64,000 bases of DNA, from positions 64,001 through 128,000 of the forward strand of contig CAVTBV010000007.1 in the NCBI GenBank assembly GCA_963733095.1. The letters are read 5' to 3'. Source of the stretch: Candidatus Bathyarchaeota archaeon. Lineage in GTDB: Archaea > Thermoproteota > Bathyarchaeia > Bathyarchaeales > Bathycorpusculaceae. Positions 6,957-61,747 of this stretch are shown here, in pieces (the first letter of the stretch is position 1; each line of letters begins with the position of its first letter). Position numbers and translations under genes: made by a program. Under the pieces are notes generated by a model. It made no database searches, was not told the origin of the DNA, and worked only from the letters and a program-made list of their open reading frames with translations.

Positions 6957-6988
6957 GGATTCGCTTAAAACATTAAACGAATCCTTTT
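6957..6988. terminator. Hairpin terminator candidate
   Basis: GGATTCG...CGAATCC followed by TTTT, just past the histidine kinase stop. Confidence 0.4.
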
Positions 6989-7005
6989 GAAGTTTTTAAG
7001 GTTCT

Positions 7006-29125: not shown

Positions 29126-32100
29126 TTATTGATTTTTCTTGCTTCGGATTTGGTTATCAACGTGCCTCTTTATTGTGTCTTTTTCATAGCTTAACCTGAG
29201 GCGCATAATTTTTCCTCCTCGCCCTCTTTCTCCTGTGAAGAACCTTACCTCGACCAACCCTCGTCGTTCCAGTTCAACTATCGCTCGACCTCTATGGTTC
29301 TTAAAACCGTAGAGGCTTGATTGAGGTATCTTCTGGTTGGTACTGATTTCAATGAGTGATCTCCATCCTGCTTTCTCTGCTGCTAATCTGTGTTGCATAT
29401 AATCTTTGATGAACTCCTTTGTTAGGTAATTGAACACTTTTTCCGCAACTTCGGAGGTAAATTGAAAGTGCCCTTCTCTTGGTTCTTGATTAATGAATTC
29501 AGCAGCAGATTTCTCTTTTAAATTATTAAGATCAGATTCTTTAGGTTCCCCTTCTTTGTTTGAGGTCTGAACGGTAATGTTGATTGGCGTTTCGCACATT
29601 TTGGTGTTCCCTTGTTCGTCTTTGTACTTAACGATAGAAGTGATGGTAAATTGTCCGGTTTTTTTGGCCTGCATCGCAAAGTCGACTGTGATTACGCTGA
29701 ATGGTTGAAGCTCAGTTTCCTGCAGCAATAATGTTGTTTTATTTAGTTTTGAGGTATGCGATTGTTCGAGCACATCAATCTCTGAAGGCACAATACTGCA
29801 CATTTCTATTGAAAAAGCTCCCCTCGAGACATTGATTATGTCCAACCTGCCATGGAATGTTTCGCCCGCAATGACTTTTATGGGTGTTATAAAATATGCC
29901 TTGACATTTGGCTTGGCAAACTTTTGGTCCCATTCTGAATTTGTTTGTGTTATTTTTTCTCTAATTGTGTTTGCGTTACTTTTGTCGCCGCTTTTTTCTA
30001 GCACCCATGCGTAATCAGATAGTAGGAGATTGAGTAATCGTGGATTCGAGAATTTCCTGTGAAATATGGTGATATATTTTTCAAGTTGTTCTGAGGCTTG
30101 TTTGAATTTGCCTAGTCCAGCAAGCAAAACGGCTTGAGCTAGGGCGTAGTAGAATATCAATATTGTCTCGCGGTTGGTTTCTGTTGGTGTAAATATTGTT
30201 TTTAGTTTGGCGTCATATTCCAATGCTTTGGCTGTTTTTCCCAGTTTTACGAATTGTTTTACCAGATTCGAGTATACCATTGCAAGGAATAGGGGTGAGT
30301 TGGCTTTGTTGGAGTATTCGATAGCTGTGAAGTTTTTTTCTGTCGCGCCTTTTAAATCACCTGTTGCACTGAGTAGCAGGGATAAAAAGCAATTTGCCTT
30401 TGCTAGGATGATGTGATTGCCCATCCTTGTTTCTTGCTCGATTGTGGAGACTTTTTCCAGCATTCTTTGTGCTTCAGGGTAGAGTCCGCAGTAGATGAAT
30501 ACTTTTCCAGCCTGATTGTAGGCTTCCATCATTGAACGTAAATCGCCTAATCCATTGTATATTGCGAGTGAGCGCAAACAGTAGGCTATTGCTTTTTCCA
30601 CCTCTCCTTGTCCTGAGGCGAAATCGGCGACTACGAACAATAACCATGCTGTGTCGGAGAGGGCGTATTCTTCTTCAAAGATTCTTAGGGATTCTTCGCA
30701 TAGTTTTATCGCTTCTGGGATTTGGCCATATAGGTTTGTCTCCACGACTCCTTTGTAGTGAAGGATTCGGGCTTTTTCAATTTGGTTTAGGTTTTCTTCG
30801 TTTTCTTCCTTCTTTATCAGGTTTTCAATTTCGTGTGTGTCTCCTTGGAAAAAGGCGGCGCGCATGGCTTTGATTAAGGCTTGTTGGCGAATAGGTCGGG
30901 TGCTGATTTCAGCTAAGGTCTTGTATGTTTTTATTGCATCTTTGAAAGCGTTATTTGCGTAGAAGGCCTCACCTAGTCCTTCTAAGACTTTCTTTCTTGT
31001 TTCTAAGTTCTCTGGTGTATCGTTGATTGTTTGGAGGGCCCAGGTAAAAAGCTGTATGGCTTCAGTGTTGCTGTATCTTGCTAAGGCATCTTTGCCTGCC
31101 AGGATGCTGTATTCTATTGCTTTTGGGTTATTTCCGGCTTGAGTGTAATGGAAGGCTAGTTGATTTACGGAGAAACCCGAATCTTGTTTGTTTTCCATTT
31201 GTTGCCCGATTCTTTGGTGATAGGCTATTTTTAGTGGCTTTGAGATTTCTTGGTAGAGAACTTCCCTTGTCATGGCATGATCAAAAGTGTAGACGTTGTC
31301 TTCTAGTCGTAATAGGAACGTGGTATGGAACATTTTGTTTAGTGTTTCAAGAACGATCAGGCTGTCAATTGAGAGGACAGAGGCAATTAGGTTGCCGTCA
31401 AATTTGTCTCCTATGACTGCAGCTACGTCAAGGATTCTTCTTTCTTCAGGTTTTAGGGGTTCTAGTCTTCGGAGGATTATTTCTCTAACTCTGTAAGGGA
31501 TTCCTATCTTGTTTTTTAGCTGCCATGTTTTTTGTTTTCTGACGAGGCCTCCGTTTTCTGATAGCATGCGGATGGTCTCTACGACAAAGAGGGGATTGCC
31601 ATGGCTTTCGTCTGATATGCTCTGTATTAAGGCTGGATCAAGGAAGCCTCCGAGCATGCTTTTGGCAATCTTTCCTATGTTTGTTTTATTTAGGTTTGCT
31701 AGTTTGATTTCTTTGAACAATGCTTCTCGACCCATTAGATGCAATGTACTGGCAAGTGGTCGGGAGCCTTCTCCGCTAGTTAATTCTTCGTTTCTGAATG
31801 TTCCCACTATCATTATTCGTTCTGAGCCCATGGCGCGGGACATGTAGTGAAGAAGGGCTAAGGATGCGGTGTCTGCCCAATGTAGGTCTTCTAGTATCAA
31901 CACCAACGGTTTTGATGCGGACAGGAAAAGTAGTTCTTTAGTGACTGTTAAAAAAGTTCGGTCTTTCCAAACGAGCGTTGGTTCATGGGTTGGTCCGTCG
32001 TTTTGTGGTGGGGAGCGTTCGGTTAGGTAAGAGGCCATTTTTGATACGGTATAAGAAAGGTTGCCGTTAGCTGTATTTTCTTGATCGGGTGATAGAAAGG

Positions 32101-32359
32101 AGTTGAAAGCTTCTACGAATGGGAAATAGGGAACATTGCTGCTGCTTAGGCACCAGCCTAAAAGAATGCTGACATTTTTGTCCTTGGCTATGTTGAGGAA
32201 TTCATTGACCAATCTTGTTTTCCCGCTTCCAGCCACGCCTGAAACCAGGACTGTTGATCCTTTTCCTTGAAGCATGGAATATAGGTGCTTTTGTAAATCA
32301 TCCAATTCGGTTTTTCTGCCAACAAAGATTGGCTCACCCAACACGAGGGATTGTTGCAT
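29126..32359 (-). CDS. STAND-type AAA ATPase-TPR protein with Ig-like and C-terminal wHTH domains
   Basis: FVGR, GVAGSGKT, LEDLHWAD, GNPLF, TPR helices, C-terminal ELERRGLVE..GERGRGG. Confidence 0.85.
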   Translation of the reverse strand: MQQSLVLGEPIFVGRKTELDDLQKHLYSMLQGKGSTVLVSGVAGSGKTRLVNEFLNIAKDKNVSILLGWCLSSSNVPYFPFVEAFNSFLSPDQENTANGNLSYTVSKMASYLTERSPPQNDGPTHEPTLVWKDRTFLTVTKELLFLSASKPLVLILEDLHWADTASLALLHYMSRAMGSERIMIVGTFRNEELTSGEGSRPLASTLHLMGREALFKEIKLANLNKTNIGKIAKSMLGGFLDPALIQSISDESHGNPLFVVETIRMLSENGGLVRKQKTWQLKNKIGIPYRVREIILRRLEPLKPEERRILDVAAVIGDKFDGNLIASVLSIDSLIVLETLNKMFHTTFLLRLEDNVYTFDHAMTREVLYQEISKPLKIAYHQRIGQQMENKQDSGFSVNQLAFHYTQAGNNPKAIEYSILAGKDALARYSNTEAIQLFTWALQTINDTPENLETRKKVLEGLGEAFYANNAFKDAIKTYKTLAEISTRPIRQQALIKAMRAAFFQGDTHEIENLIKKEENEENLNQIEKARILHYKGVVETNLYGQIPEAIKLCEESLRIFEEEYALSDTAWLLFVVADFASGQGEVEKAIAYCLRSLAIYNGLGDLRSMMEAYNQAGKVFIYCGLYPEAQRMLEKVSTIEQETRMGNHIILAKANCFLSLLLSATGDLKGATEKNFTAIEYSNKANSPLFLAMVYSNLVKQFVKLGKTAKALEYDAKLKTIFTPTETNRETILIFYYALAQAVLLAGLGKFKQASEQLEKYITIFHRKFSNPRLLNLLLSDYAWVLEKSGDKSNANTIREKITQTNSEWDQKFAKPNVKAYFITPIKVIAGETFHGRLDIINVSRGAFSIEMCSIVPSEIDVLEQSHTSKLNKTTLLLQETELQPFSVITVDFAMQAKKTGQFTITSIVKYKDEQGNTKMCETPINITVQTSNKEGEPKESDLNNLKEKSAAEFINQEPREGHFQFTSEVAEKVFNYLTKEFIKDYMQHRLAAEKAGWRSLIEISTNQKIPQSSLYGFKNHRGRAIVELERRGLVEVRFFTGERGRGGKIMRLRLSYEKDTIKRHVDNQIRSKKNQ

Positions 32360-42205: not shown

Positions 42206-43925
42206 TTGAAGAATGCCCGAAAACTAATATTTTATATCTCAATTGTTGCTTCGTTCTTCTTGCTCTTCGGTTATCCTTTTTTTAGGATTAGTTATGCGCT
42301 ATATTTTGAGCCTAATTCTGGGCCGCCCGATATTATTAGCATGCTCCCATTGTCTTATTGGTTTTTTACTGCGCTCGTTTTATCTTTTGTAATAATTCAA
42401 ATTGTTTTCGCAAAAAGTAAATTTGAAATTAAGTTAGAAAAGTTGTTTCTCACCATTTTTGTACCGTGGATGATGTACGGCTCTCTTCCCATAAGCCAGT
42501 TTTCGTCAATTTTTACGATTAATGATGCGGTTGTACATTTAGCTAATGCTGAAAACATAATTTTGAATGGTGGTGTCCATTATCCAGCTTCTGGGTATCT
42601 TCAGTTTCCAGGGACTTTTCAGATGGCTGCTATCATTGGAAACTTTATTGGAGTAACCAAAGGAGCATCATTTCTTGACCTAGGTATTATTCTTAATACG
42701 ATATTTGTTTTGCTTATTTCTTTGTTTTTGTTGATTATTGGTCAAAGAATGTTAGGCCCCAGAAATGGGTTTATTCTTCCGATTCTCTATTTTCTTGTAA
42801 ATACTGGTTTTTTCAAGCAGTTTTGTCCTCAAAACTTTGCTTTACTTCTTTATTTTTTTGGCATTTTTGTTTTTTTGGTTTTGGGCGAAAGCTATATTAA
42901 GTCAAGATACACAACCGGCATTCTTTTACTTACCAGTTTTGTTTTATCAATTACTCATCCTATTACGAGTGTGTATTTTATTGCAACTTTCTTCGGAGTC
43001 TACTTAGGTCAAAAACTGTTTAAGAGAAAAATCGGGGTAACTATTTCAAAAAAATTTCTTCTATGCACAACAGGAATATTGATTGCTTGGTGGGTTTTTT
43101 TTGCAACGAAAATTTTGAAGCTCTTATAAGCTCCCTCTTTTATTTGTTTCAAGCTGGGATCCACTCACCAATCAGTCTATTAAGCCCACCACTCTCCTCA
43201 TTTTTCTCGGTATTCCTTTCATTTTTTACAAAAAGCTTTCAATTCCTTATGGCTGGTGCTGCTGTTGTTGGATTAATCTATGTCTGGCGCAGGCGAAAAA
43301 CAAAAGCTGTTCCATTCGTGTTTTTTGAGTTTCTTATAGGTCTATTAATCATAAGTATTTTCCCGCTTCTTCTTTTCACGGGTTTGTGGTCCGATCGTGC
43401 TTTACAATTTGCTTATTTTCCTTTGTGTGCTTTAGCCATATACGGTTTTGAAACATTATCTCATCTAATTGGTAAAAGAATCCAATTTACTAAGAACTTG
43501 AGAACACTGGGGCTTTGCTTAATTATAGTAATTCTTCCTTTGCTTTTATTTACCATCATCAACTTGATTCATACGAAAATGTTTTAAGTTCAGATTTTTC
43601 TACCACTGCTTTCTTAATAAATTTCAGTCTTCAAACTGTGCCTGTAGCCCTCCCTTGGAGTAACGGAGGATATGCTACTTATTTCTATCAGGATCCTGCA
43701 ATTGCGGACATTCAAATATCTCACTCTCCCAGCTCACTTACCCAACCCTACATATTTGTGGCATGGCTGAGCAATCCTCAAGTGATTGTTTTTTCACTCA
43801 AAGAAATTCGCAGTTTTGAATATGTTGGAGCAGTCAGCAACGATTACAATAATAGAATTTCTTACCTGAACGGGTCTTCCACTTGGAACGAGTATATGAC
43901 AATCGTTTTAATACAGTATATGTAG
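42206..43925 (+). pseudogene. Frameshifted polytopic membrane protein (DUF2206/GT-C-like)
   Basis: Three consecutive overlapping ORFs, the first two hydrophobic (D..VH, YLQFPG, PQNFA, ITHPIT). Confidence 0.65.
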
Positions 43926-49947: not shown

Positions 49948-50646
49948 ATTAAACACTATTAACAAATCTACTGTTTATTCTCACAGCTTTAATAAAGAAG
50001 CACTGCAAAACACCGGTCTTCTTCTAACAGACAACAAACACTCCAAAACAGAAACTTGACTTGTCATAAAAATAAGATAGCTTTATTCAGCTTTCCCCAA
50101 AAAAGTGTGTGGAAAAAAAAATAAAAGAGAATTTTTGTTTGAATCAGCATGTGCCGTTGTCCTTCTCCCAATAAGGAGACAGTGAGCATCTAAAACTAAC
50201 TACGTTCAATCTAATTGATCTGAAAGAAGAAAAAACAGCTCATATTCGACGAACTCTGCAAAAGACTGGATGGACTCAAAGCATAACATCATTCTTATCT
50301 TTTTCAGGTAAGAACACGTTTAGTAATGATATTTGAAACTGGTTTTCGCTGACCAGTCAGGCATGAAGCTTTAAACATTAAAAGCAATATTTCCCCTATG
50401 ATGCCTCATTAACAATTAAAAAAAGAACAGGTCGCTGTAAAAGCTCAAGGGCTCCTAATTCCCAAGCGCATTTTTACTTGTTTTTACTTCCATTGTTGGG
50501 ACTCGGGGGTAAATCACAAGTCGTCATCCCGGCTGTTTCGGTGTCTGACAAAGGTTTCTCTGACTCGGCATATCCAAGCACCTTCTAATTAGAGTCATTT
50601 TTAAAATTTTGCGTTAGAAAGAAATGTGGGAAATGGCTAAGAGATT

Positions 50647-51468
50647 CTATAACGTTTTGTTTTTAACCCAATTATGGAAATTTTGTACTGATTCTTTTGG
50701 TAAATCATCTCTGGCTCTCACTGGTAGCTGCAATCTTTCGCTAATCTTGATAGATAGAGCTTCATAGTTGAGTGGGTACAGCTGTTCTTTGAAGGTCCAA
50801 GAAAAACCCTTTCGCTGATTGACAAGTTGCTCGTATGGTTTTAGCCAGCGAGTGGCAAAAACAGGGGTTATTCCTAGGAAATTGCAGATTTCTAACTTTT
50901 TCTCTACTTCGCTTTTGTCTAAGACAGATAGGGTGTTTTTGACTTCAACGCCTATTGTCAATTTGCCTGAACAGTGGCGGGCAATTATGTCAAGGGTGTT
51001 TTCTGTTTTTGTCCATTTTTTATTTTGATATTCTTTTGTATGTTCTCCTTTTATTTTGAAGCCTTGAATCTTTAATTCCGATTGGACTAGTTGTTCAAGA
51101 TGTTCTCCGTAGAGCGTACACATTTTATGGTTGGAGTATTTATCGATTAGTTTGCAGGTTGATTTTATATGAGTATTTAGTAGATGGTTGGAGTCAGATT
51201 TATCGAGTTTTGAGTTATAGTAGAAACAAACCGTTTGCGTTTGGGTTCGAGCTTTTCTTCTTCGCAGTTTGCCTTCCTCCTCAAGCTGAGTTAGTGCTTG
51301 ATAGACTACATCGTCGGAAAGGTTGTCTTCATATATCGTTTGGATCTGTGTAAGATAGTACGGTTTTCTTTTTGCTCGTCCGATTTTGTCTTCGAAAAGC
51401 GGCATCACACAGAGCTTGGCTGTCTGAGTTTTAGAGTCACTGTTCTGCAACAAATTCACCGCTTGCAT
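50647..51468 (-). CDS. wHTH + PD-(D/E)xK restriction-endonuclease-like protein
   Basis: GEHLEQLV, LDIIA, VEVKN; N-terminal ALTQLEEEGKL wHTH. Confidence 0.7.
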   Translation of the reverse strand: MQAVNLLQNSDSKTQTAKLCVMPLFEDKIGRAKRKPYYLTQIQTIYEDNLSDDVVYQALTQLEEEGKLRRRKARTQTQTVCFYYNSKLDKSDSNHLLNTHIKSTCKLIDKYSNHKMCTLYGEHLEQLVQSELKIQGFKIKGEHTKEYQNKKWTKTENTLDIIARHCSGKLTIGVEVKNTLSVLDKSEVEKKLEICNFLGITPVFATRWLKPYEQLVNQRKGFSWTFKEQLYPLNYEALSIKISERLQLPVRARDDLPKESVQNFHNWVKNKTL

Positions 51469-51519
51469 TTTTCTGCTAGTTGCATGCTCGTTTCTCCATG
51501 TTCCCTATATAAATAATTT

Positions 51520-53505
51520 CTAATCAATCAAACCCCTACCAAATTTTAGCTGAGGTTGACGGCTTAGTTTTTCCCGGTTTATCCAGTAAAGATAGTTGCC
51601 ATCCGAATGCAAAGTTTTTCCGAGTAGTTCAGGGGTTACTGATTTTACTTTTATGAACGGTTGTTCGACGAATTCTTTGAGGTAGCCGATGAGGGATTGT
51701 TTGTCCTCAGCGTTTAGTTGATTGAAGTATTGGTTACAGTAGCTTTTTGATTTGGCCATTTGGAAATCAAAGTTGCGTTCTTTTAGGAAGTTGTTGATTT
51801 TTTTATCTATAGCGGTTTCTTCTTTTTTGTAGTCTACTCTTTTCATGCCAGCTCTTTCAAAGAATGGGTTGTATTTGGCCATGACTGCTAAGACCTCAAC
51901 TACTTTAGCTTCAGCTGTGGGTAGGGTATGCTTTACCAAGTATTCTCCTAGTCCAATTCCCCGAAACTTTGGATGGATAATAACTCGGCTTATTCGAGCC
52001 ACTTCATCATTGATTAGTTTTGCTTTATGCAAATCTCCAGGTGTAAACTTGTAGCGTTCCCCAAAAACCATGTTCCGAGGTTTAAGGTTCAAGTATGAGT
52101 TGGAATAGATGATAATTCCGATTAAGTTGTTGCCGCAGACAAGTTTGTAGCAGTTTCGCATTCTTAATTGCATGTTCTCTTTTTCGTTTGTGCTTCGGTA
52201 ATGGAAGCATTTTAACTTCTCGTAGTCTTCAAGGTCGCCTTCCTCAACAAGTATCGAGTCGAGCAGGCTGCACGGTTTAGCCGCAAATCTGTTTTTCTCT
52301 ACTGTAACATCTCCTTCAAAGCCCTTCCTAACCGTTATGTCAGGCTGAAAATCACCAAGTAAATCATCATGCGTGGTCGCAACAACCACAGTTTTCCCCA
52401 GCTTTCGAGCAAGCTTCTGCAAAGAGTAAGCGATTACCTTAGCCATAACACGGTCTAAACAACCGCAGAACTCATCAATCAACCAAACCTTCTTTTCTGT
52501 GCAATTAACGAGCTTAGCAAGCCGATAGCGGAATTTTTGACCATCGCTTAACTCCTTGAACTTACGCAGAAACATAAAAGCGTCATTCAACCCACATAAA
52601 CTCAGAATTTCAACAGCTTCCTTAACATCTTTACCAATACCTTCAACCAACGTCTCCTCAGGATCCACCGGAAAATCGCAAAGATCGATTGACTCTTCTC
52701 CAAAAAAGTTTTTAAAAGCCTTCAAAAGCAAAGATTTACCTCCTCCAGAATCACCCGTAACATAAATCAGATCGCCCCGTCTAAAATCAAGGCTAAAATT
52801 ATCAAATACCACAAACCGCTTAGTCTCGTCGATACCTAAGCCGAATGCTTCACAAACAGCCAAAGTCCGTTCTGAAATAGCTGCTTTAGTTGAGAATTCA
52901 ACGTTGCATTTTAACGTTAGAAGCTCGTCTGAATGCTCACCAGCAGGATTATGTATGTTGTTTTCAACTTTAGACTCGAAGCCTCCTGCAAGCCGTTTAA
53001 TATCGTCATCGCAGACGCTTGCTGGCTCACGAAGTCTGATCAAATTGTCAATACGCAAATCAGTCTCGTTAAGCAGAGACTTTAGTAGGCCGCGCTCGCC
53101 TTCGCTAATTATTCGGTAGTATTCTTCAGCATCTAGCAGTAAATCGTGTTCTCCGCGTAGCTTATTCATAACCTGTCTAATCAATCGTCTATCCACTTCG
53201 GAAACAGGCAACCGGACAACACTTACTTGTCGAATTCCAAGAGCTTTAGCAGCTTTGAGTCTGTGCTCGCCATCTGCAACCAGCAAATCCTTGTTAGTAA
53301 TGATGGGTACGACAAAGCCGAAGTGTTCAATGCTTTTCTTTAAAGCAGAGAAACGCTTGGGGGACAGCTTGTTGGGGTTGGCGCCATCTGTTTTTAACAA
53401 ATCAACAGAGACTAGTTCGGTTGGGGGGACAAATACTTCAATTTCTATAATAGGGGTCGTAGTGTTCATTATCTGTATCCTCACTATATTCGGTTTTTTT
53501 GTCAA
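51520..53505 (-). CDS. ParB/Srx - ABC ATPase - GNAT acetyltransferase fusion (COG2401-like; start probably 53469)
   Basis: NPNK..SIEHFGF..PI..DGEHRL; GDSGGGKS, LSDGQ, LIDEF, ATTH; ISRVIIHPKFRGIGLG, YNPFFERAG. Confidence 0.9.
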   Translation of the reverse strand: MTKKPNIVRIQIMNTTTPIIEIEVFVPPTELVSVDLLKTDGANPNKLSPKRFSALKKSIEHFGFVVPIITNKDLLVADGEHRLKAAKALGIRQVSVVRLPVSEVDRRLIRQVMNKLRGEHDLLLDAEEYYRIISEGERGLLKSLLNETDLRIDNLIRLREPASVCDDDIKRLAGGFESKVENNIHNPAGEHSDELLTLKCNVEFSTKAAISERTLAVCEAFGLGIDETKRFVVFDNFSLDFRRGDLIYVTGDSGGGKSLLLKAFKNFFGEESIDLCDFPVDPEETLVEGIGKDVKEAVEILSLCGLNDAFMFLRKFKELSDGQKFRYRLAKLVNCTEKKVWLIDEFCGCLDRVMAKVIAYSLQKLARKLGKTVVVATTHDDLLGDFQPDITVRKGFEGDVTVEKNRFAAKPCSLLDSILVEEGDLEDYEKLKCFHYRSTNEKENMQLRMRNCYKLVCGNNLIGIIIYSNSYLNLKPRNMVFGERYKFTPGDLHKAKLINDEVARISRVIIHPKFRGIGLGEYLVKHTLPTAEAKVVEVLAVMAKYNPFFERAGMKRVDYKKEETAIDKKINNFLKERNFDFQMAKSKSYCNQYFNQLNAEDKQSLIGYLKEFVEQPFIKVKSVTPELLGKTLHSDGNYLYWINREKLSRQPQLKFGRGLID

Positions 53506-53968
53506 CTGAGGAATCGGTGAAAGGTTGTTTGTTTGCAGCTGCCCTTCTTTCCGTCATGTTTAGAAAAAAATCAGCTAATCTATCGTAGGCGATTTCCGGG
53601 TTTTCATGAGCTTTTTTCAAAGCAATCTTCAAATTGCTAAAGAATTCAAGGTAATGCAGGTCAAAATACAGCTGGTCTACTCTATTGTTAGGATCGCCGA
53701 TTAAAGAGAGCAATGTGAACTTGAGTGTTCCTGTTGCATACCTGAAGAGGATCTCACAACCCTTGTTGATTATATCCTTGTTCGCCTGCAATATCTCAGG
53801 AGTAAGCTTAGGACCAAACTCCTCCTGCAGTTTCTCTATCCTTAGAAAGAGAGCTTTCTCAGCCTCACTGAAGGTCGAGTTGTCAAATCGACCTATATAA
53901 TCTCTTGGCTCGTCGACAAGTTTAGAAGACAAAGCGTCAATTCTCTTAGTTAAACGAGGCATGTTCAT
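53438..53968 (-). CDS. Hypothetical helical protein
   Basis: Overlaps both neighbours (operonic). Confidence 0.7.
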   Translation of the reverse strand: MNMPRLTKRIDALSSKLVDEPRDYIGRFDNSTFSEAEKALFLRIEKLQEEFGPKLTPEILQANKDIINKGCEILFRYATGTLKFTLLSLIGDPNNRVDQLYFDLHYLEFFSNLKIALKKAHENPEIAYDRLADFFLNMTERRAAANKQPFTDSSVDKKTEYSEDTDNEHYDPYYRN

Positions 53969-54357
53969 GGTACAAACACTCCATGTTTGGCTTTTTCCTC
54001 TAAAGCTTGTAGTCGATTGATAAGCTCGGGGAGAACAGCGGTTTGAAACAGCATCGTGTTTGCCTTGAGCATGATGTTAAGGGCGCCAAGCTGAGCAAAT
54101 TCATTTTGGCTTGTTAGTAGGCGGACGCTGGCTTGCCGATAGATTTGTTCGTACCGGTTGACCACCTTCATCATAACGTCTTCACAATTTAGGACACTTT
54201 GAAGGGCTGGTTGCCACCGTGCTCTGGTTTCAAAGTCCAAGTAGATAGTGCGTTCGCTGCAACCCGCTTTTTGGCTAAGTTCCGAGACGATTTCGGCTTG
54301 GGAGAAGCCTAAGCCCTCCAGCCTGAGCAGTTCTAAGCGTCTGGTTATTGTTTGCAT
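53965..54357 (-). CDS. HTH protein, terminase-small-subunit-like architecture
   Basis: RRLELLRL..GFSQAEIV..GCSERTIYLD, then helical tail. Confidence 0.6.
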   Translation of the reverse strand: MQTITRRLELLRLEGLGFSQAEIVSELSQKAGCSERTIYLDFETRARWQPALQSVLNCEDVMMKVVNRYEQIYRQASVRLLTSQNEFAQLGALNIMLKANTMLFQTAVLPELINRLQALEEKAKHGVFVP

Positions 54358-54890
54358 GTTATTGACCTTGGTACTTTCGGTTTATTCGTACCAAAGAAAA
54401 ATTCTTGAAAACTCGCAGAACTCACAGCTCCAAAATTTCCCGTTGCATAAATTGGCGATACCATCTAATTCCGTGTCATGAAGCCAAAATTGGATTGTTG
54501 GTCCGCTAATTTACCCCCCAAAAATTGCAACTTTTCTTCAAATTACACACTCAGCCTAAACTATAGAAAAAAAGGTTTGCCTTTTTCCTTTGAGCATTCA
54601 AATGGGTTTTAAAAAGATGTGGGTAAGGCATTGTGGTGCTATCGATATCCTCTGGATTGCAAAAAATCAGACTACTCAGGCAATGAATGCTTTGGCAGAG
54701 TTCGTGAGACTTGGGGTTAAGGAGTATCCACTAATGTTTGCTGATGAGTCAGACACTATGAAGATTAAGCCTTCGAAACAATATTTCTCTTACGCCTTTC
54801 AGACAACAGATACTTTCAGGTCGCGTAAAGAACCAGGCTGAAGACTGAGAATATAAAAAAAGAAAAGTGTTAAGAAAGGAATGTTTTGTG

Positions 54891-56093
54891 TTATGGGATT
54901 TCAGGGTTGCTGATGCATCTTGACGCCCACGGCATTAGTGTGTATGAAAAGAGTGGATTGCCTAAGTGGGTGCAGTTGTTTCCGCTTTGGGCATGCGGGT
55001 TGTCTTTGTAGAAACCGCTTGGTTCCATTACGGTATTTGCAGTTCCCGTTCCTGTCATTGGAGGATAAGTTGGAACTCCTGGGTGTTGTAAGCCCATTAC
55101 GTGTCCCAGCTCATGAGCTAGGTGATTGATGTTTATAGCTCCAAGATAGGCGCCCGGATTGTTTGGGTCAGGTACTCTGAGCTGTGCATCGCATGTTACG
55201 ATTTGGGCGTTGGCTGTACCTGAGCCAAAGGTTGCTCCTCCTCCCCAGTTAGCGTAGAAATACTGATTCATGCTATCAGCTACAAACACTTCTATAGCGT
55301 TAGATTGAGTTACTTCGTTTCTTAAGTTATCAATTTCAGTCGCAGTATCTAAAACTTTGTAGTTAGCCTTGTTAACATAGACTGGAGGGAGAACGTTGAA
55401 GAAAATACAGCATTTTCTCCACATACACTTAGCGGCTTGCATCAATGTGTCAAACGACCAGCCAGTAGGGCTCGCATCGGTTGGTCCTGATCTGATGAAA
55501 ACAGGTTGAATCGGAAGAGTCTTAAAAAAAGCAAAGGCTATGATGACTGTTCCCACGATGGATACATTTTGGACAACTATTTGAGTTACCCATGGGAACT
55601 CTTGCGCCTTCAAATCTAAACTTAAGGTAATCGGTACTCTCATTTCTTTGGTAGGTTCCCTCATTGGAAAACTCAATTTTTCCCCAAATTTTCCTTGGAT
55701 CTTGCCCATTATTGTATCGACGAAAGGAACAAAATAGTCCAAGTCTTTTCCTTCAGATTTTCTGTAGCCTTTTGATTTATCGATTAGCGGATAATGCAGA
55801 TTCATTTGGAAGGATACTTCAAATGTTCCGTCCGGAGAATATTTTGCTACCGATGGGTTTCTTAAGTTAAGTGAAATTTGTCCCGAATCTCCCTCTTTGG
55901 CCTCTACAGTTGACGCAATAAGATTTGCTTCATCGAGGGTAAGTTTAGGCGTTTCTTTGTCGTTTGAAATAGAAAATAGCAGTTCACCGTTAATTTGAGA
56001 TTTTTGTTTTCCCTTGTTTGTGATTACGAATGCGGATGCATTTACGAGTTTTGCTATCAGATGATTTTGTTTTGTTGTTGACATGTTTTTCAC
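54891..56093 (-). CDS. Metzincin zinc metalloprotease
   Basis: HELGHVMGLQH (HExxHxxGxxH) and Met-turn TVMEP; no signal peptide seen. Confidence 0.8.
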   Translation of the reverse strand: MKNMSTTKQNHLIAKLVNASAFVITNKGKQKSQINGELLFSISNDKETPKLTLDEANLIASTVEAKEGDSGQISLNLRNPSVAKYSPDGTFEVSFQMNLHYPLIDKSKGYRKSEGKDLDYFVPFVDTIMGKIQGKFGEKLSFPMREPTKEMRVPITLSLDLKAQEFPWVTQIVVQNVSIVGTVIIAFAFFKTLPIQPVFIRSGPTDASPTGWSFDTLMQAAKCMWRKCCIFFNVLPPVYVNKANYKVLDTATEIDNLRNEVTQSNAIEVFVADSMNQYFYANWGGGATFGSGTANAQIVTCDAQLRVPDPNNPGAYLGAININHLAHELGHVMGLQHPGVPTYPPMTGTGTANTVMEPSGFYKDNPHAQSGNNCTHLGNPLFSYTLMPWASRCISNPEIP

Positions 56094-56309: not shown

Positions 56310-57182
56310 ATGCCAAATTCAGTACAGGTGACAATCGATATTTTTAGCGGTCGACCCAATCCAGTACTAGAGTTTAAAGACCAAGAAGCCAAAACCATTT
56401 TAGACAAACTGCAACCAGGAAAAAAAATAATCGCCCAAAAACCACTCCCCTCCGAACCTATACTAGGATACAGAGGAATGATAATAAATCAAATCGGAGA
56501 ACAGACCAAAGATTTGCCACAGACTTTTCGAGTCGCCAACGGAGAGCTTTTCGGCACCAATCTAGCCCATAAAGCAAAGGACGAAACTTTTGAAGACTTC
56601 ATATGCGGCACAAACCAAGCGAAAAAAATGGAAGAACCTCTATGCCGAATTATGAAGGAGCAAATCAAGAATTTCCACGAAATAAGAGAAAAATGGGTCC
56701 ATGAGAAAATAGTCTGGCCTCCCCACACGAATCCTTGCAAATGCGCGCCCCTATATGAGCCAACATGGTGGAATGTCCCTGCTATTCAGCCATACAACAA
56801 CTGCTACAACTATGGCACTAATTATCGTTCAAACACTTTTGCACAGCCAGGCCGTTCAGGAGGAGCCATGTACACATCTTTAACTTGTGCCTCAGTAAAA
56901 CCAGCAGCATTAAAAGACGACCTAATCGATAGTCCTACCCAAGAAAATGCTTGCCCCAAAGAAGGACATTTGGTTGCACTAGTAATATGGCCCAATTATG
57001 ATTTTCATTGGTATCGCAAGGGTCAAAACGGGTATTGGTCTCATAAGCCTGGAGGTACTGCAGTAACCAACGTCGATAACAGCGGACATCTGATTCTTGA
57101 TCCAAGGAATGCTAACAGAGGGGGATACACCGATTTCTGCGGATTCATGGTTGTCAAAGATGGACACATCAAAATCAGCTAA
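56310..57182 (+). CDS. Putative papain-like Cys-His enzyme with N-terminal FSGRxNP domain
   Basis: NNCYNY, DFHWYR, WSHKPG motifs. Confidence 0.55.
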   Translation: MPNSVQVTIDIFSGRPNPVLEFKDQEAKTILDKLQPGKKIIAQKPLPSEPILGYRGMIINQIGEQTKDLPQTFRVANGELFGTNLAHKAKDETFEDFICGTNQAKKMEEPLCRIMKEQIKNFHEIREKWVHEKIVWPPHTNPCKCAPLYEPTWWNVPAIQPYNNCYNYGTNYRSNTFAQPGRSGGAMYTSLTCASVKPAALKDDLIDSPTQENACPKEGHLVALVIWPNYDFHWYRKGQNGYWSHKPGGTAVTNVDNSGHLILDPRNANRGGYTDFCGFMVVKDGHIKIS

Positions 57183-57946: not shown

Positions 57947-58348
57947 TTATTCCATTTGGTCAATTGGAATTGCGACTTTGCACTTCTTAAGCAAATCTTT
58001 GTCCTGCGTTACTAATTTCATATTTTGCCTTTCAGCAATGTATGCATACGAAGCATCATAGAACGTGAGGTTCCGTTCTATAGCAATCGCCAGAACATCA
58101 GCGATAGAATCTATCGTCATCTTTTGCAATGGAGCGAGGGCATCAGAAAAAATCGTTGCAACCCTGCTGGGATCCTTGAGTTTTTCTTGTTTATTTTCCC
58201 GCCATAGCACATTACCAACTTCAAATTCAATAAGTGAACTCACAGCGCACTCCTCGACACTGAAGGGAATACCTGAGATAAGCATCGGATAGAGCGCTGA
58301 GGTATCTATGAGGTACTTACATCTCTTGTCTTGTCGCTGTGACATCAT
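57947..58348 (-). CDS. vapC: VapC PIN toxin
   Basis: LIDTSA, E, LTFYDASY, LVTQD. Confidence 0.9.
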   Translation of the reverse strand: MMSQRQDKRCKYLIDTSALYPMLISGIPFSVEECAVSSLIEFEVGNVLWRENKQEKLKDPSRVATIFSDALAPLQKMTIDSIADVLAIAIERNLTFYDASYAYIAERQNMKLVTQDKDLLKKCKVAIPIDQME

Positions 58349-58543
58349 CGACCCATTCCTGAGGTTTAACGTTCATGAGCTCTTTGAGTTCCTTTGCGAT
58401 TCGCTGGGCATTTGTTTTCTTCTCGGCTACGAGTTCCTCAAGGGTTTTCTCCACAGCCAATCTTAAGTCGATCCCTAGCTTTTCAGCTTCAAGTTTTAGG
58501 CTTTTCTTGACCCTTACAGATAATACTTCGGTCAACAGTTCCA
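58317..58543 (-). CDS. vapB: VapB-type RHH antitoxin (start approximate)
   Basis: VLSVRVKKSLKLEAEKLGID; overlaps vapC. Confidence 0.75.
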
Positions 58544-58545
58544 CC

Positions 58546-58573
58546 CGTATACAAAAATAATAATCTGTATACG
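58546..58573. promoter_or_regulatory. Inverted repeat, probable TA autoregulatory operator
   Basis: CGTATACA-N12-TGTATACG. Confidence 0.55.
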
Positions 58574-58654
58574 ACAAATATAAGAATACTGCAAAGAAGA
58601 CGTGACCTCTTTTTTCAAACAAACCATTTGCTAATCAAAAGGTTAAAAAAAATA

Positions 58655-59095
58655 TTAAACGTCGAACGGATAATCCTTGATATGTGTCACTTTAAAGTGT
58701 TCCTTGGCTTTTTCAAACAATTTGTTGTCTGCTGTAATCAGTTCTGCGCCTATTTTTTCGCAAAGAAAAAGATAAGCTGCATCATAAATCGCAATATCAA
58801 TCTTGCAGGCAATTGCTAAGCTCTGGGAAACATCGGTCCAATCTAATTCATAAAGCCTTAGTTGAGTATCCTGCAAGAATTTGAGTGCCTCTTGAGCATC
58901 AGTCTGCTGGATTCTTCTTTGTTTAACCGCTATCCACAATGCGTTTGCTGTTTCTTGTGTAATAAATGACGGCGCGAACAGCTGAACTTCGCCGCTGAGG
59001 AAATTGTGTTTTAGTTTATCTGCGTTTTCCTGATAAATTTCATCGGGCAAAACCCATTTCAAGACTACGCTTGCATCTATGATACAGTTAAGCAT
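58655..59095 (-). CDS. vapC: VapC PIN toxin
   Basis: IIDASVVLKW, ETANAL, IYDAAY, LITAD. Confidence 0.92.
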   Translation of the reverse strand: MLNCIIDASVVLKWVLPDEIYQENADKLKHNFLSGEVQLFAPSFITQETANALWIAVKQRRIQQTDAQEALKFLQDTQLRLYELDWTDVSQSLAIACKIDIAIYDAAYLFLCEKIGAELITADNKLFEKAKEHFKVTHIKDYPFDV

Positions 59096-59102
59096 GCTGC
59101 TC

Positions 59103-59327
59103 TCACATCAGGCCTTCTCGAATCCAACCAAGAATCTCTTCATTAGTTGCTGGCTTTGACCGTTTTCTTATTTGGTCAAGCTTTTCAAAAGCTTCTCGTT
59201 TCTTTTGTTCATCAATTTTAGTCTGCAAGCATTCTCTGATATATTGGCTCCAGTTTAGCTCAATTTTCTTCATGTCTTTTTTCATTGCTCTGGGAATTTT
59301 CACGGTGATCACATCGATTTCGTCCAT
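59103..59327 (-). CDS. vapB: VapB-type RHH antitoxin
   Basis: VITVKIPRAMK..NWSQYIRE. Confidence 0.8.
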   Translation of the reverse strand: MDEIDVITVKIPRAMKKDMKKIELNWSQYIRECLQTKIDEQKKREAFEKLDQIRKRSKPATNEEILGWIREGLM

Positions 59328-59348
59328 GACCCAATAGTATTCCCTCAA

Positions 59349-59371
59349 AGTATATATCAACAATATATACT
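59349..59371. promoter_or_regulatory. Inverted repeat, probable TA operator
   Basis: AGTATATAT-CAACA-ATATATACT. Confidence 0.55.
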
Positions 59372-59616
59372 AAAGAATTACACACCTATAGATTTTTCGT
59401 TTTAGGCTAACTGCCTGCTTTTTAGTCCTCTATTTCGACTAATGGACCTTAAGCGGCCATCTAGTCCACGACCGCTCATCTTTCAACATTCTCATCGAAA
59501 AACTAATGACCGGCTTCTAAATTTCCATACTAAACTAATTAAAAAAAACACATAGAAATAGTATTCAACAAATTCTTCAACGGAATATGCCTGATTATTT
59601 CGTCAAGCAACAAAAA

Positions 59617-59720
59617 CACTCCGCCTCCCCCCAACCTTCCCAAGACGCACACAAACGCAACCAAAACTTGTCCATAAGCCTAAATCAAAAAGGCAGCCTA
59701 AAGCAAGTCCCCAAATTTTC
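59617..59720. repeat. Repeat F, diverged copy 2
   Basis: CCCCAACCTTCCC..GACGCACACAA.CGCAACCAAAAC. Confidence 0.7.
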
Positions 59721-59773
59721 GCGCAGCAATACGTTTTTTATAATCAGCCTAATGAGAGGAAAAAATCAATCGT

Positions 59774-60199
59774 CTATAAGGTCGGCAGTTTAACTATGCC
59801 GTCTATGTTGCTGAAGTGCTCATCGAACGTGTATATTTCGTCGATATCGTTTTGTCGCATTCTATCAACGGCTAACGCATCGTTTGGTTCAAGCTTTAAG
59901 TCGTTACCAATTTCAGCCGCGGCAAAATACGCATCTTTAGTTACATCAAGGATTCTTACATTATCTAACATAAAGAGCCCCAAAATCAACGACGTTAGCT
60001 GATCTTGAGGCATGCCATTTTTAAGAATGTTAACAATTTCCGAAACATGTACAACTGTTGTAGTGACTTGTTCTTCGCCTGATGAAACCCTTCTGATTAT
60101 TTCTTTCGCTTGATCTTTCATAGCCTCTTCTTTTTCGGTTAAAGTCTTCTTCGGTCTATAATAGGCATAGACAAAAACGTTTGCATCCAAGAACCTCAT
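59774..60199 (-). CDS. vapC: VapC PIN toxin
   Basis: FLDANVF, SEI, PNDAL, TFDEHF. Confidence 0.92.
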   Translation of the reverse strand: MRFLDANVFVYAYYRPKKTLTEKEEAMKDQAKEIIRRVSSGEEQVTTTVVHVSEIVNILKNGMPQDQLTSLILGLFMLDNVRILDVTKDAYFAAAEIGNDLKLEPNDALAVDRMRQNDIDEIYTFDEHFSNIDGIVKLPTL

Positions 60200-60459
60200 A
60201 CAGAGTCCTCGGACACTTTCTTCTCAAATTCGCTCCAACTGCCAATCGACTTGACACCCAAATCAACTTTATCAAAGCACTCGGTCAAATCTACCCGTCG
60301 CTTTGGAACCAATTTTAGGTAGCCTTTCCGCTTGATTACGTACAGTTCTCTGGTTTCACCGATTTCAGATTCACGCCAATCAGCAGGCAAGATAAGACGT
60401 CCCTGAGCATCCACCTTTTTGATTTCCACACCACTTTCCAAGTTTTCCACCACAAACAC
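60196..60459 (-). CDS. AbrB/MraZ-fold antitoxin
   Basis: KKVDAQGRLILPADWR; 4-nt overlap with vapC. Confidence 0.8.
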   Translation of the reverse strand: MFVVENLESGVEIKKVDAQGRLILPADWRESEIGETRELYVIKRKGYLKLVPKRRVDLTECFDKVDLGVKSIGSWSEFEKKVSEDSV

Positions 60460-60603
60460 TGATAGCCATCCACTCTAAAAAACTTTCACAGCCAACAACC
60501 CCAAAAATAACAGAGAACTTCATGCAACGTAATACACCCCATATTTTTGATGACTTGATTAGGATAGAAAGTTCTAGAATTACATGCAAAAATCAGCTTC
60601 TTG

Positions 60604-60784
60604 GCGAAACTTGCGCGCAAATAGAGCGACAACTAGAACAATCCGCCACCCCCAACCGTCCCCAACCTTCCCCAGACACACAGCGACGCACACAACCGCA
60701 ACCAGAAAAAGCTGCAAAGCCCAAGCAAAAAAAGCAACCCAAAACAAACCCCTCATCATGCAAAAAAAACCGCGTTGTTGTTCT
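60604..60784. repeat. Repeat F, copy 3
   Basis: Match to 57719-57890. Confidence 0.85.
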
Positions 60785-60890
60785 TCTATCAGACAAAAAA
60801 GTTAGAAGGATTCTATGGTTACTCCTTTAGCTTTCAACACTCTAATCTTCTCAGCAGCGGTTTTTGTGGCCTTTTGAAAATGCATCCACA

Positions 60891-61115
60891 CTATTCCAAA
60901 ACCAAACTAAAAACTTGGGCAACTAAGTAGTCTTCTCTGGCGTCTGCTTCTTTTTGCGTTAAACCATACTTCATTTGATCCGCCAGCACATGTTTCTGGA
61001 TTGCGTTTCCCAAAGCATTCAAATCAGGCAATAGAAGAATCTCATAACCGCAGGTACACTTCAAAACAGGCAAATTATCCTTCAACGAATGCTTTTTTGG
61101 GTCTTTCGGTTCCAT
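60891..61115 (-). CDS. Small CxC..H putative zinc-binding protein
   Basis: LKCTCGYEILLLPD..AIQKH. Confidence 0.6.
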   Translation of the reverse strand: MEPKDPKKHSLKDNLPVLKCTCGYEILLLPDLNALGNAIQKHVLADQMKYGLTQKEADAREDYLVAQVFSLVLE

Positions 61116-61339
61116 TAATTTACCATATCCAAGACAACTGTACGTTCTTCATCAATTAAAGGCAAGTTCCAAAACCTGTAATATGTCAAAAAAAATAAAT
61201 GAAATAGCTTTAAAATAAAATAGACCTTAGGTCTTTTCTACAGCTTATTAATTCCGCAAACAGCGATTGACGCATTTTTTGCATTACACCCATGCAAAAG
61301 CTTGCTTAACCAAGAAACTTGACGGTTTATTCAAAATCT

Positions 61340-61747
61340 TTAGCTTATCCATAGGGTTTCGGGTAAGTCTTTGAAGTGCTCGTCTCCGGTTAGAACTTTG
61401 CATTGATTTATTCTAGCTGTTGCAAGGACTATAGCGTCGAATAGGCTGGGTGGGTTTTGTTTGGATCTTTTTGATTTTTCCACAAGTTCAAGGTGGCATT
61501 TTGCTGCTTCCAGAGCTAATGCTGAATCGATTTGGGTTATGTTTGAAGCCGCGTTGATCATGTCAAGCCATTCTGCGACTGTACTTTCATCGTTGCCTTC
61601 TCTTAGAAATTTTCGGGCGCTCTCAGCTAACACAATACTTGGAGTATAGACTTCTTCTGCGTTTTCAAGAATTTCCACCACTTTCTTGCCTTTTTCGCTT
61701 CCAAGCAGCAGCTCAACCCATGCATACGTGTCAATTACGATCTTCAC
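61340..61747 (-). CDS. vapC: VapC PIN toxin
   Basis: VIDTYAWVE, LAE, SLFDAIVLA, LTGDEHF. Confidence 0.92.
   Translation of the reverse strand: MKIVIDTYAWVELLLGSEKGKKVVEILENAEEVYTPSIVLAESARKFLREGNDESTVAEWLDMINAASNITQIDSALALEAAKCHLELVEKSKRSKQNPPSLFDAIVLATARINQCKVLTGDEHFKDLPETLWIS

Follow-up and report, generated by a model that had tools for sequence, protein, structure and literature searches.

A chromosomal ParB–ABC-ATPase–GNAT cassette in a Bathyarchaeota archaeon and its probable kinship with a virus-borne module

The 64,000-nucleotide stretch of archaeal DNA analysed here (the window) contains a cassette whose central gene encodes a ParB domain, an ABC ATPase and a GNAT acyltransferase in one polypeptide chain. 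This locus is the single-protein, chromosomal form of a module already predicted in print: an ABC–GNAT system for the acyl modification of DNA bases was proposed by Iyer et al. (PMC7824862, 2021). We consider it reasonably probable that the locus is a terminase-less copy of a virus-borne ParB/ABC/GNAT module, and that the module acts as one DNA-directed enzyme. The ParB domain (NTP-binding, DNA-loading) would place this enzyme on DNA, aided by a helix–turn–helix (HTH) protein; ATP-driven dimerisation of the ABC domain would gate or move it; and the GNAT domain would transfer an acyl group onto a DNA base, at first in connection with genome packaging. In the archaeon, the cassette would have been kept as an accessory element among toxin–antitoxin and glycan genes, and the nuclease encoded beside it would be a neighbour gained within a single lineage rather than an obligate restriction partner.

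The locus

The locus comprises four ORFs, all co-oriented on the minus strand. These, the three domains of the fusion and one candidate promoter element are as follows.

53965..54357, minus strand: ORF for an HTH protein of 130 aa; first gene of the cassette
53438..53968, minus strand: ORF for an orphan-family protein of 176 aa; second gene of the cassette
51520..53505, minus strand: ORF for the ParB-N/ABC-ATPase/GNAT triple fusion, 661 aa from a TTG codon
53101..53430, minus strand: ParB/Srx N-terminal (CTPase-fold) domain of the fusion, about residues 26–135, with DGEHR box
52321..52908, minus strand: single ABC nucleotide-binding domain (NBD) of the fusion, about residues 200–395 (PF00005)
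51568..52272, minus strand: GNAT acyltransferase domain of the fusion, with an inserted helical subdomain, about residues 412–646
51506..51513, minus strand: candidate TATA-like box, TTTATATA, read from the sequence, in the spacer before the nuclease gene
50647..51468, minus strand: ORF for a winged-helix + PD-(D/E)xK nuclease of 273 aa, assigned from its fold and D160/E175-x-K177 motif

The first two genes overlap by 4 nt, and the second overlaps the fusion gene by 32–68 nt depending on the start codon of the latter. In the database the fusion stands at 649 aa, and homologues begin at the ATG at 53469; this codon, giving 649 aa, is the likely real start. The nuclease gene follows after a 51-nt spacer, within which TTTATATA lies ~42 nt before the nuclease ATG. 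The layout described in the earlier note, three overlapping genes and then a co-oriented nuclease 51 bp on with a TATA-like box ahead of it, is thus present in all its parts, the box as a candidate element.

The four-gene block is found at 11 other loci with 65–76% DNA identity, and the edges of the block are the edges of the genes. Conservation at the DNA level with edges matching the four genes argues that the arrangement has not arisen by chance. Insertion sites of the fusion loci vary, with housekeeping genes around them, and within the genus the intact triple fusion is present in two of 61 genomes, plus one pseudogene; its distribution is patchy and accessory. The cassette, of three to four genes, spreads as a unit, in the window copy without terminase or capsid genes nearby. 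Toxin–antitoxin and glycan genes surround it in this archaeon.

Domains of the triple fusion

To judge from sequence, the catalytic motifs of all three domains are intact. Among 17 homologues, on which conservation was judged, these motifs are invariant or nearly so, in agreement with the earlier description of a ~650-aa fusion with intact ParB (DGEHR), ABC and GNAT motifs. Invariant in the ParB domain are D78, E80 and R82 of DGEHR, and D105–R107. Pfam ParB_N is sub-threshold here (E 0.0044, 17.5 bits vs a cut-off of 26.3), and PF02195 is precomputed in many homologues. The domain matches PHROG 498 (E 9.5e-20), 620 (E 6.8e-16) and 8071, PADLOC MTase_II (E 8.7e-13), and the PDB entries 5k5a (ParB chain; E 4e-8) and 7bnk (E 1.5e-6). 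These matches and the Box II arginine motif place it in the ParB/Srx family. The ABC domain matches PF00005 (E 6.7e-9), NCBIfam NBD families and NBDs in the PDB (E 1e-13); Walker A (GDSGGGKS), LSDGQ, Walker B (IDEF; D344–E345) and the H-loop (His379) are invariant in the 17 sequences. The GNAT domain matches PF13673 at its cut-off, and PF13508 and PF00583 as well; its invariants are P-K-x-R-G-x-G-L and MAKYNPFFE-AGM, and RGIGLG is kept across the 17 homologues, with R-G-x-G-L-G as its invariant form. An NBD with all four motifs, a GNAT domain C-terminal to it in the same chain, and homology to phage members identify the protein as an ABC-ATPase + GNAT of the COG2401/MK0520 type, labelled in databases as an ABC ATPase with a fused, predicted acetyltransferase.

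Viral relatives and packaging genes

The ABC–GNAT part of the fusion is ~40% identical to relatives in archaeal genomes and viral contigs that stand beside the gene for the terminase large subunit (TerL). In the genome collection, 70 loci carry ABC–GNAT only; TerL is directly upstream in 48 of them, directly downstream in two and elsewhere in four, while 13 gave no TerL match and three had no room for one. Of 31 such loci on viral contigs, 20 have TerL upstream, two downstream, two elsewhere and five none, and two had no room. TerL and neck/tail genes were both identified among the neighbours of these relatives. The ParB-fused form, too, occurs on a viral contig (L171; 32 kb), as a protein of 666 aa that is 42% identical to the window fusion. 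The order there is integrase ... ParB, the 666-aa fusion, a 168-aa HTH protein, TerL, portal, scaffold and major capsid protein. The nine ParB-fused genome loci gave no TerL within 8 kb, with a query that also missed the divergent TerL of L171.

Among bacterial phages, 84 records match the module, and Tenacibaculum phage pT24 does so at E 7e-15. In phiK7B1 and Klebsiella ST13-OXA48phi12.3 the order is ParB–ParB–ABC–small–GNAT, small ORFs, and then large terminase and portal; in SSU5 the module stands at the end of the linear record. A split ParB/ParB/ABC/GNAT operon precedes terminase in two of the three phage regions inspected. In a quick, midpoint-rooted tree, the seven chromosomal ParB-fused rows make up one clade (SH-aLRT 100), which joins the viral L171/L172 and L030 (support 95; L030 and L172 are on long branches) apart from 88 TerL-linked rows. 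As aligned, then, the ParB-fused forms, including one viral, appear as a single clade.

The 130-aa HTH protein is a candidate small-terminase-like DNA-binding subunit. Its residues 4–55 match the 168-aa ORF of L171 (37% identity, E 1e-10, pairwise), which lies between the triple fusion and TerL; the small-terminase reading rests on this one viral homologue and its position, and the window has no TerL. Otherwise the protein gives weak matches to HTH_11 and PHROG 22757, no match in the PDB and none to TerS families in profile searches. Its gene is upstream of the fusion in eight of nine related genome loci. The 176-aa gene is found there in five of the nine; its product has no match in Pfam, NCBIfam or PADLOC and no lead in the PDB or Atlas, and its family has only 37 representatives among 1.84 billion proteins.

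The earlier note had offered two readings: an acyl-modifying enzyme paired with a cognate nuclease, and a relic viral module of modification linked to packaging. Comparison of sequences and gene neighbourhoods supports the second as the better fit. Homology and gene context, in viral contigs from archaea and in phages of bacteria, uphold its viral packaging link; ‘relic’ fits in part, as we describe later. At the window copy itself, a domain scan of the neighbours found no terminase, portal or capsid genes, as the note had said of terminase large subunit and capsid, and the sole clear TerL in this genome lies on another contig. For the window copy, this excludes a role coupled to packaging as such.

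The target of the GNAT domain

From context, we infer that the target of the GNAT domain is DNA. The ParB part of the fusion matches ParB–DNA-methyltransferase fusions of the haloarchaeal viruses PhiCh1, phiH, HSTV-1 and HRTV-28, so that ABC–GNAT sits where a DNA-base-modifying enzyme sits in these relatives. The GNAT domain might instead acetylate a protein (terminase, portal, a chromatin protein or another DNA-bound factor), with ParB and ABC merely bringing it to DNA. Some phage GNATs are known to modify proteins of the host (PMC7824862), and the predicted structure of the domain is compatible with such a role. The model (pLDDT 81) has a GNAT fold (top Z 13.5; 221 chains at Z >= 8), and its best matches, at Z 12.5–13.5, are protein N-acetyltransferases and small-molecule GNATs: Ard1, RimI, Naa50/Naa60 and phosphinothricin acetyltransferase. 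Differences of ~1 Z, however, cannot separate GNAT targets, and Mom and TmcA fall within the same band. Against a protein target, moreover, many viruses have a ParB domain of this type fused to DNA methyltransferases, and we regard this alternative as unlikely.

Phage Mu Mom and TmcA/NAT10 are GNAT-fold acyl-CoA enzymes that act on nucleic-acid bases. Compared with the model, neither stands out from the generic GNATs: Mom (8bv8) scores Z 12.4 over 158 aligned residues, where generic GNATs reach 13.5, and the TmcA GNAT is Foldseek rank 14 (E 2.5e-5). In a Pfam-type profile search, the fusion matched neither the Mom nor the TmcA sequence family. TmcA, like the fusion, couples a GNAT to an ATPase, but through a helicase module rather than an ABC NBD; with an ABC NBD as its ATPase, no match to PF05127, and the TmcA GNAT only at that rank, the fusion was rejected as a TmcA/NAT10 member.

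The nuclease and restriction–modification

The neighbouring protein is, as first described, a wHTH–PD-(D/E)xK nuclease. Its model (pLDDT 94) has an N-terminal winged helix (Z 10.3) and a C-terminal PD-(D/E)xK fold that matches NucS (Z 9.9), AF1548 (9.8), Can2 (9.7) and Hjc (8.2). D160 and K177 are invariant and E175 is nearly so; the restriction-endonuclease-like fold and the D...(D/E)xK motif put it in the PD-(D/E)xK superfamily.

Two schemes would give this nuclease a part beside the fusion. One, to which we give a slim chance, is a domesticated viral enzyme: the single-chain, NTP-gated ParB–ABC–GNAT protein, aimed by the small-terminase-like HTH protein and the 176-aa partner, would write a non-methyl acyl mark on the chromosome, and in the window's sublineage the adjacent nuclease would read that mark. 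If true, this would amount to a new kind of defence based on modification. The other, a non-methyl restriction–modification (R–M) pair in which host DNA would be acylated by the fusion and the nuclease would cleave unmarked (or marked) DNA, is quite improbable. For it speak the co-orientation of the two genes, 51 nt apart, the restriction-endonuclease fold with its intact D...ExK motif, and the description, from jumbo phages, of Mom-type GNATs joined to REase domains (PMC7824862). The nuclease also follows the fusion in the window, L015, L018 and L023, and in L124 and L142, the last two found through the nuclease search itself.

Association across genomes, the test put forward for the R–M pair, proved loose. 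The nuclease family was assessable at 29 metagenome loci, each with at least 1 kb of upstream sequence; only two of these have the fusion upstream, and no neighbour of any kind is conserved. In the class survey, two of 401 genomes have the nuclease, and in one of them (G398) the genus search gave no fusion match on the nuclease contig. Three of five related fusion loci with room downstream have the nuclease and two do not; these last (L017 = G411, a 95%-complete genome without the nuclease, and L019) carry intact fusions. Family sizes are unlike: 41 clusters for the nuclease, at least 429 matches in the fusion search, and 953 clusters for the HTH protein. At L018 the nuclease ORF is whole and the fusion in pieces, a weak point since the assembly may carry frameshift errors. 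With this lack of consistent co-occurrence (2/29, 3/5 and 2/401), the R–M pair is not supported. Linkage of the nuclease to the cassette is confined to the closest relatives of the window, and the nuclease looks like a neighbour picked up by a single lineage.

Persistence of the cassette

The cassette could also be what a decaying provirus has left behind, functionless today. No viral structural gene lies close to the window copy, a broken ParB/ABC/GNAT copy lies on contig 16 of the same genome, and fragmented copies occur elsewhere (L018, and L023 = G430, which has many stops in HTH, fusion and nuclease genes). In the window, by contrast, all four ORFs are open and their motifs intact. The fusion has >120 close clusters at 63–87% identity among the matches listed, and the HTH protein has 68–89% identity to the 120 clusters listed of its 953. 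These identities argue for purifying selection; a functionless leftover is very improbable, and ‘relic’ applies only in part to a gene that is whole.

The most improbable reading makes the cassette the partition or maintenance machinery of a mobile element, in which ParB would bind the centromere and the ABC ATPase would replace ParA. In its favour, ParB structures from plasmids, such as that of pNOB8 (5k5a), match the ParB domain, and databases name the phage homologues partition proteins. Against it, no replicon genes were seen, the viral modules adjoin packaging rather than replication genes, and partition offers no role for a conserved GNAT active site. A ParABS system was rejected as well, with no ParA, ParB HTH or C-terminal dimerisation domain found in the fusion or ~25 kb of neighbours.

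Relation to known systems

The predicted phage ABC–GNAT system has the same NBD + GNAT core as the DNA-directed enzyme proposed here, and pT24, named as one of its carriers (PMC7824862), matches it; the window protein differs in its in-chain ParB domain, its location on a cellular chromosome and its lack of a terminase. The ParB–ParB–ABC–GNAT operons of Nickievirus, the Klebsiella phage-plasmid and SSU5 have the same domain types in the same order, with 43–45% identity in the ABC part and 24–30% in GNAT. In Nickievirus and the Klebsiella phage-plasmid, they are split into four to five genes, with two ParB paralogues, directly before TerS/TerL/portal, whereas the window form is one polypeptide without packaging genes. 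ParB–DNA-methyltransferase fusions (PHROG 498; MTase_II) have a homologous N-terminal ParB ahead of the enzyme module, which is a SAM methyltransferase there and ABC–GNAT here. A further likeness, by description, is to the 5mYOX thymine dioxygenases: a phage ParB-like protein of CTPase fold, without a classical DNA-binding domain, activates the dioxygenase on dsDNA (PMC13229309). That enzyme is of another class, and the two proteins are separate polypeptides.

ABC–GNAT fusions had been called uncharacterised, and in the literature searched we found no characterisation and no experimental test of the predicted acyl mark; a role in DNA-base acylation was already in print. The module is kept beside the packaging genes of unrelated tailed viruses, bacterial and archaeal; if that prediction is true, it would represent a new class of ATP-dependent DNA modification. 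With three predicted activities in one intact protein of ~650 aa, the fusion offers a simple construct for biochemistry and structural work, and its terminase-less spread on chromosomes raises the question of whether hosts reuse a viral enzyme. Public records call the module a transporter or a partition system; JGI and phage records also label homologues ‘ABC-type ATPase fused to a predicted acetyltransferase domain’, and the label of the Klebsiella phage CDS reads ‘ABC-type ATPase fused to a predicted acyltransferase domain’.

The cassette and its fusion protein

The window belongs to contig 7 of a metagenome-assembled genome (MAG) of 2.84 Mb, 95% complete; Bathyarchaeia is the label that close homologues of its proteins carry in public records. 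The sequencing runs listed as containing this genome include none of RNA, and in the DNA runs its share is small. The cassette of interest comprises four genes, of which the third encodes a single chain with ParB-N, ABC-ATPase and GNAT domains (the triple fusion).

Features of the cassette (window positions; genes from ORF calls)
50647-54357, minus: four-gene block, co-oriented
first gene, minus: helix-turn-helix (HTH) protein, 130 aa (HTH130)
second gene, minus: hyp176, 176 aa
third gene, minus: triple fusion, 661 aa; 649 aa if begun at the ATG at 53469, as in the database copy and homologues
fourth gene, minus: nuclease, 273 aa, after a 51-nt spacer
50249-50264 / 54690-54705: 16-nt inverted repeat with one mismatch, bracketing the block about 330-400 nt outside

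As read from the sequence, the spacer between the fusion and nuclease genes contains TTTATATA. DNA similarity to 11 other loci begins just before the HTH gene and stops at the end of either the nuclease gene or the fusion gene. The inverted repeat is close to chance expectation (about 0.15 such pairs, by our own estimate), and its conservation was not found in the related loci, where homology stops short of it. A tRNA scan of the whole window found no tRNA genes.

Pfam detects ABC_tran in the fusion (E 6.7e-9) and GNAT families (PF13673 at its cut-off), with ParB_N below threshold. Among PHROGs, the ParB part matches a ParB-methyltransferase family (E 9.5e-20) and a ParB-like family (E 6.8e-16), and the remainder matches phage families labelled 'ABC transporter'. 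Aligning 17 homologues shows the DGEHR motif, Walker A, LSDGQ, Walker B and the H-loop histidine to be invariant or nearly so, together with the GNAT R-G-x-G-L-G and MAKYNPFFE-AGM blocks. Judged by these motifs, the single chain carries three predicted catalytic modules, all intact. ORFs, profile and motif matches, the alignment and a structure model of the nuclease were all found to agree with the earlier note, and so bear out its account of four genes, a three-domain fusion and a winged-helix, PD-(D/E)xK nuclease.

Homologues beside viral packaging genes

The triple fusion is common: at least 120 protein clusters share 63-87% identity with it, and the contigs concerned reach 820 kb. Homologues exceed 400; for each scan, locus context covers the 80 best loci. 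With every species represented by one genome, the scan yielded 79 loci, nine with the full fusion and 70 with the ABC-GNAT part only. These shorter genes, from Bathyarchaeia and Nitrososphaeria, match residues ~197-620 at about 40% identity. Clustering of their neighbours revealed a recurrent gene set ending in a gene of ~455-480 aa followed by the ABC-GNAT gene. The former encodes the large subunit of terminase (TerL; PHROG 2, E 1.9e-46; Terminase_6N, E 1e-18), and some loci also have, upstream of it, neck and tail genes of HK97-gp10-like type.

Position of TerL relative to ABC-GNAT-only genes
Genome contigs (70 loci): directly upstream 48; directly downstream 2; elsewhere in locus 4; no hit 13; no room 3
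IMG/VR viral contigs (31 loci): directly upstream 20; directly downstream 2; elsewhere in locus 2; no hit 5; no room 2

A 32nd viral locus, L171, on a 32-kb contig, encodes a ParB-ABC-GNAT protein of 666 aa that shares 42% identity with the window's. Upstream of it are genes for an integrase and another ParB; downstream come an HTH protein of 168 aa, TerL, portal, scaffold and major capsid protein. Between ParB and ABC, the L171 fusion (7011-9008) has a CPKC-containing insertion, absent from the chromosomal forms, which may be a zinc ribbon.

Bacterial phages contribute 84 matching records, of which three regions were inspected. In two of them, from Pseudomonas phage phiK7B1 (Nickievirus) and from the Klebsiella phage ST13-OXA48phi12.3, a pair of ParB genes precedes the gene for an ABC ATPase, one small ORF and the gene with the GNAT domain; further small ORFs separate these five from the genes for large terminase, portal and capsid. 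SSU5 has the same five genes at the end of its linear record. Tenacibaculum phage pT24, which matches at E 7e-15, is listed in one paper among carriers of a predicted ABC-GNAT DNA-modification system (PMC7824862).

In a tree of the ABC-GNAT core built quickly by maximum likelihood, midpoint-rooted and with L030 and L172 on long branches, the seven chromosomal ParB-fused rows form one clade (SH-aLRT 100). This joins viral L171 and L172 together with L030 (support 95), apart from 88 TerL-linked rows. Homology and gene context tie the predicted module to viral DNA packaging; the TerL-adjacent homologues, L171 and the phage operons all favor the packaging-linked viral module of the earlier note's second reading, for which 'relic' fits only in part, the window gene being intact.

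L030 (6387-9416) is a real ORF of 1009 aa, in which the core follows an N-terminal module of P-loop NTPase (GGTGEGKSS) and HTH that matches no Pfam family. Because this N-terminus differs, the core can be said to pair with any one of several modules on the DNA side, namely ParB, TerL or P-loop plus HTH. Apparent TerL-ABC-GNAT 'fusions' in three other loci (L034, L039 and L063) are artefacts, a wrong, low-complexity frame read over TerL.

The nuclease

The 273-aa protein matches no family in Pfam, NCBIfam, PHROGs or PADLOC. In its structure model (pLDDT 94), a winged helix at the N-terminus (Z 10.3) is joined to a PD-(D/E)xK domain at the C-terminus that resembles NucS (Z 9.9), AF1548 (9.8), Can2 (9.7) and Hjc (8.2). 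No variation occurs at D160 or K177 across 26 homologues, and almost none at E175.

The earlier note's first reading made this nuclease the cognate partner of an acyl-modification enzyme. The nuclease family numbers 41 clusters. A metagenome scan with the single protein as query found no relative; an unbiased motif scan of metagenome contigs with an alignment of the family (A1) gave 45 loci. The fusion lies upstream in two (L124 and L142) of the 29 loci with at least 1 kb of upstream sequence, and no gene recurs beside the nuclease in the metagenome loci apart from those on three near-identical contigs. Among 401 genomes of the class, the nuclease was detected in two, the window's and G398, and in a genus search the fusion was not matched on the G398 nuclease's contig. 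Seen from the other side, the nuclease is downstream in three of five related triple-fusion genome loci with room for it (L015, L018 and L023). In L017 a PIN/MazE pair occupies that place, and its genome (G411, 95% complete) is without any nuclease; in L019 the place is taken by a NosD/PKD protein. All nuclease-bearing loci are the window's closest relatives, with fusions 70-78% identical. The linkage is real inside one sublineage and is a property of neither family, and therefore a cognate modification-restriction pair is not supported. We reject it on co-occurrence.

A possible mechanism and its acyl acceptor

The locus very probably holds a virus-derived ParB-ABC-GNAT module to which the nuclease is not obligate. 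In the mechanism we envisage, the ParB domain and the HTH protein would load the enzyme onto DNA, ATP-driven dimerisation of its single NBD would gate or move it, and the GNAT domain would transfer an acyl group to a DNA base. The acceptor is quite possibly DNA, an assignment we make tentatively. The ParB domain is of the kind fused to DNA methyltransferases in viruses (PHROG 498, PADLOC MTase_II); haloarchaeal viruses with a related ParB-DNA methyltransferase include PhiCh1, phiH, HSTV-1 and HRTV-28. Published work describes a ParB-like protein of a phage that activates, on dsDNA, a DNA thymine dioxygenase (PMC13229309). It also describes ParB-CTPase folds, often joined to enzymes, with CTP, ATP or GTP as the bound nucleotide; a bacterial protein that combines ParB with an acetyltransferase binds GTP (PMC12704722).

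The main rival is a protein acceptor, because the GNAT model (pLDDT 81) fits generic protein and small-molecule GNATs, which give the top Z of 13.5, as well as it does Mom (Z 12.4) or TmcA. The comparison with Mom and TmcA that the earlier note proposed thus upholds the GNAT fold and does not discriminate between acyl targets.

The HTH gene lies upstream of the fusion in eight of nine triple-fusion loci, and its family is large (953 clusters, at least 120 at 68-89% identity). The N-terminal 52 residues of HTH130 match the L171 ORF between fusion and TerL (E 1e-10), and we tentatively regard HTH130, which has no PDB match, as a small-terminase-like DNA-binding subunit. For hyp176, whose orphan family comprises 37 representatives, no lead came from Pfam, NCBIfam, PHROGs, PADLOC, the Atlas or a profile search of the PDB.

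The ABC-GNAT kind is known as a prediction and is uncharacterised in the searchable literature; nothing relevant was found under COG2401 or MK0520, and the literature we found on Bathyarchaeia viruses and proviruses mentions no ParB, ABC, GNAT or acetyltransferase. The present locus adds to this the single-chain form, the terminase-less chromosomal cassette of three to four genes spread in Bathyarchaeia, the two conserved small partners and, in one sublineage, the restriction-fold nuclease. The module's role is a real and testable question, for which the bacterial phage versions are easier to handle.

Copies in cellular genomes

No packaging or capsid genes accompany the window copy. A glycosylation island (Asn synthase, glycosyltransferases, FkbM methyltransferase, GH5 and DUF1616) borders it on one side; on the other are a zincin-like protein and four PIN toxins.

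Other features (window positions unless stated)
54891-56093, minus: 400-aa protein, weak zincin (reprolysin-like) matches around an HELGH motif
56310-57182: 290-aa ORF beside it, no family match
57947-61747, minus: run of four genes for PIN-domain (VapC-like) toxins, a small ORF upstream of each
29126-32359, minus: 1077-aa STAND-type ATPase (AAA_16), TPR repeats, weak BrxC/BrxD-like N-terminal match
Contig 8, 3558-7521, minus: L094, paralogous cassette: 92-aa ORF, 147-aa HTH/coiled-coil, TerL (481 aa), 96-aa winged-helix (HTH_45), ABC-GNAT (520 aa)
Contig 16, about 42352-43892: L096, broken second ParB / ABC / GNAT copy in at least three pieces

In other MAGs the cassette sits amid unrelated housekeeping genes, frequently with PIN toxin genes close by, and at one locus an integrase is 4.4 kb away. 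Within the genus, two of 61 genomes have an intact triple fusion and there is one stop-riddled copy. Genes for ABC-GNAT alone or ParB alone are frequent there, often in multiple copies, and several of the genus's genomes have three to four copies of ABC-GNAT. The sole clear TerL of the window's genome is that of L094, beside the paralogous ABC-GNAT gene. A histidine-kinase-like gene flanks L094, and genes for capsid or tail are absent from the 16 kb read there. The ABC and GNAT pieces of L096 match phrog_11143 (E 3e-38 and 1.5e-23).

In many Bathyarchaeia species a five-gene set (130-aa, 85-aa membrane, 112-aa, TerL and ABC-GNAT) ends at a shared group of host genes, which encode a membrane protein of 81 aa, two paralogues of ~460 aa that by eye we take to be TldD/PmbA-like, and a membrane protein of 230 aa. 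The junction is shared by L037, L038, L041, L043, L044, L049 and L061, and also by L048, L050, L053 and L059; it points to either a common integration site or a virus-derived element that has been inherited vertically. ParB-ABC matches with exactly one in-frame TAG occur at five places in four genomes (two in G411, one each in G038, G420 and G347). These cover query residues ~17-406 in open frames of 437-457 aa, and the TAG could reflect a pseudogene, an assembly error or recoding.
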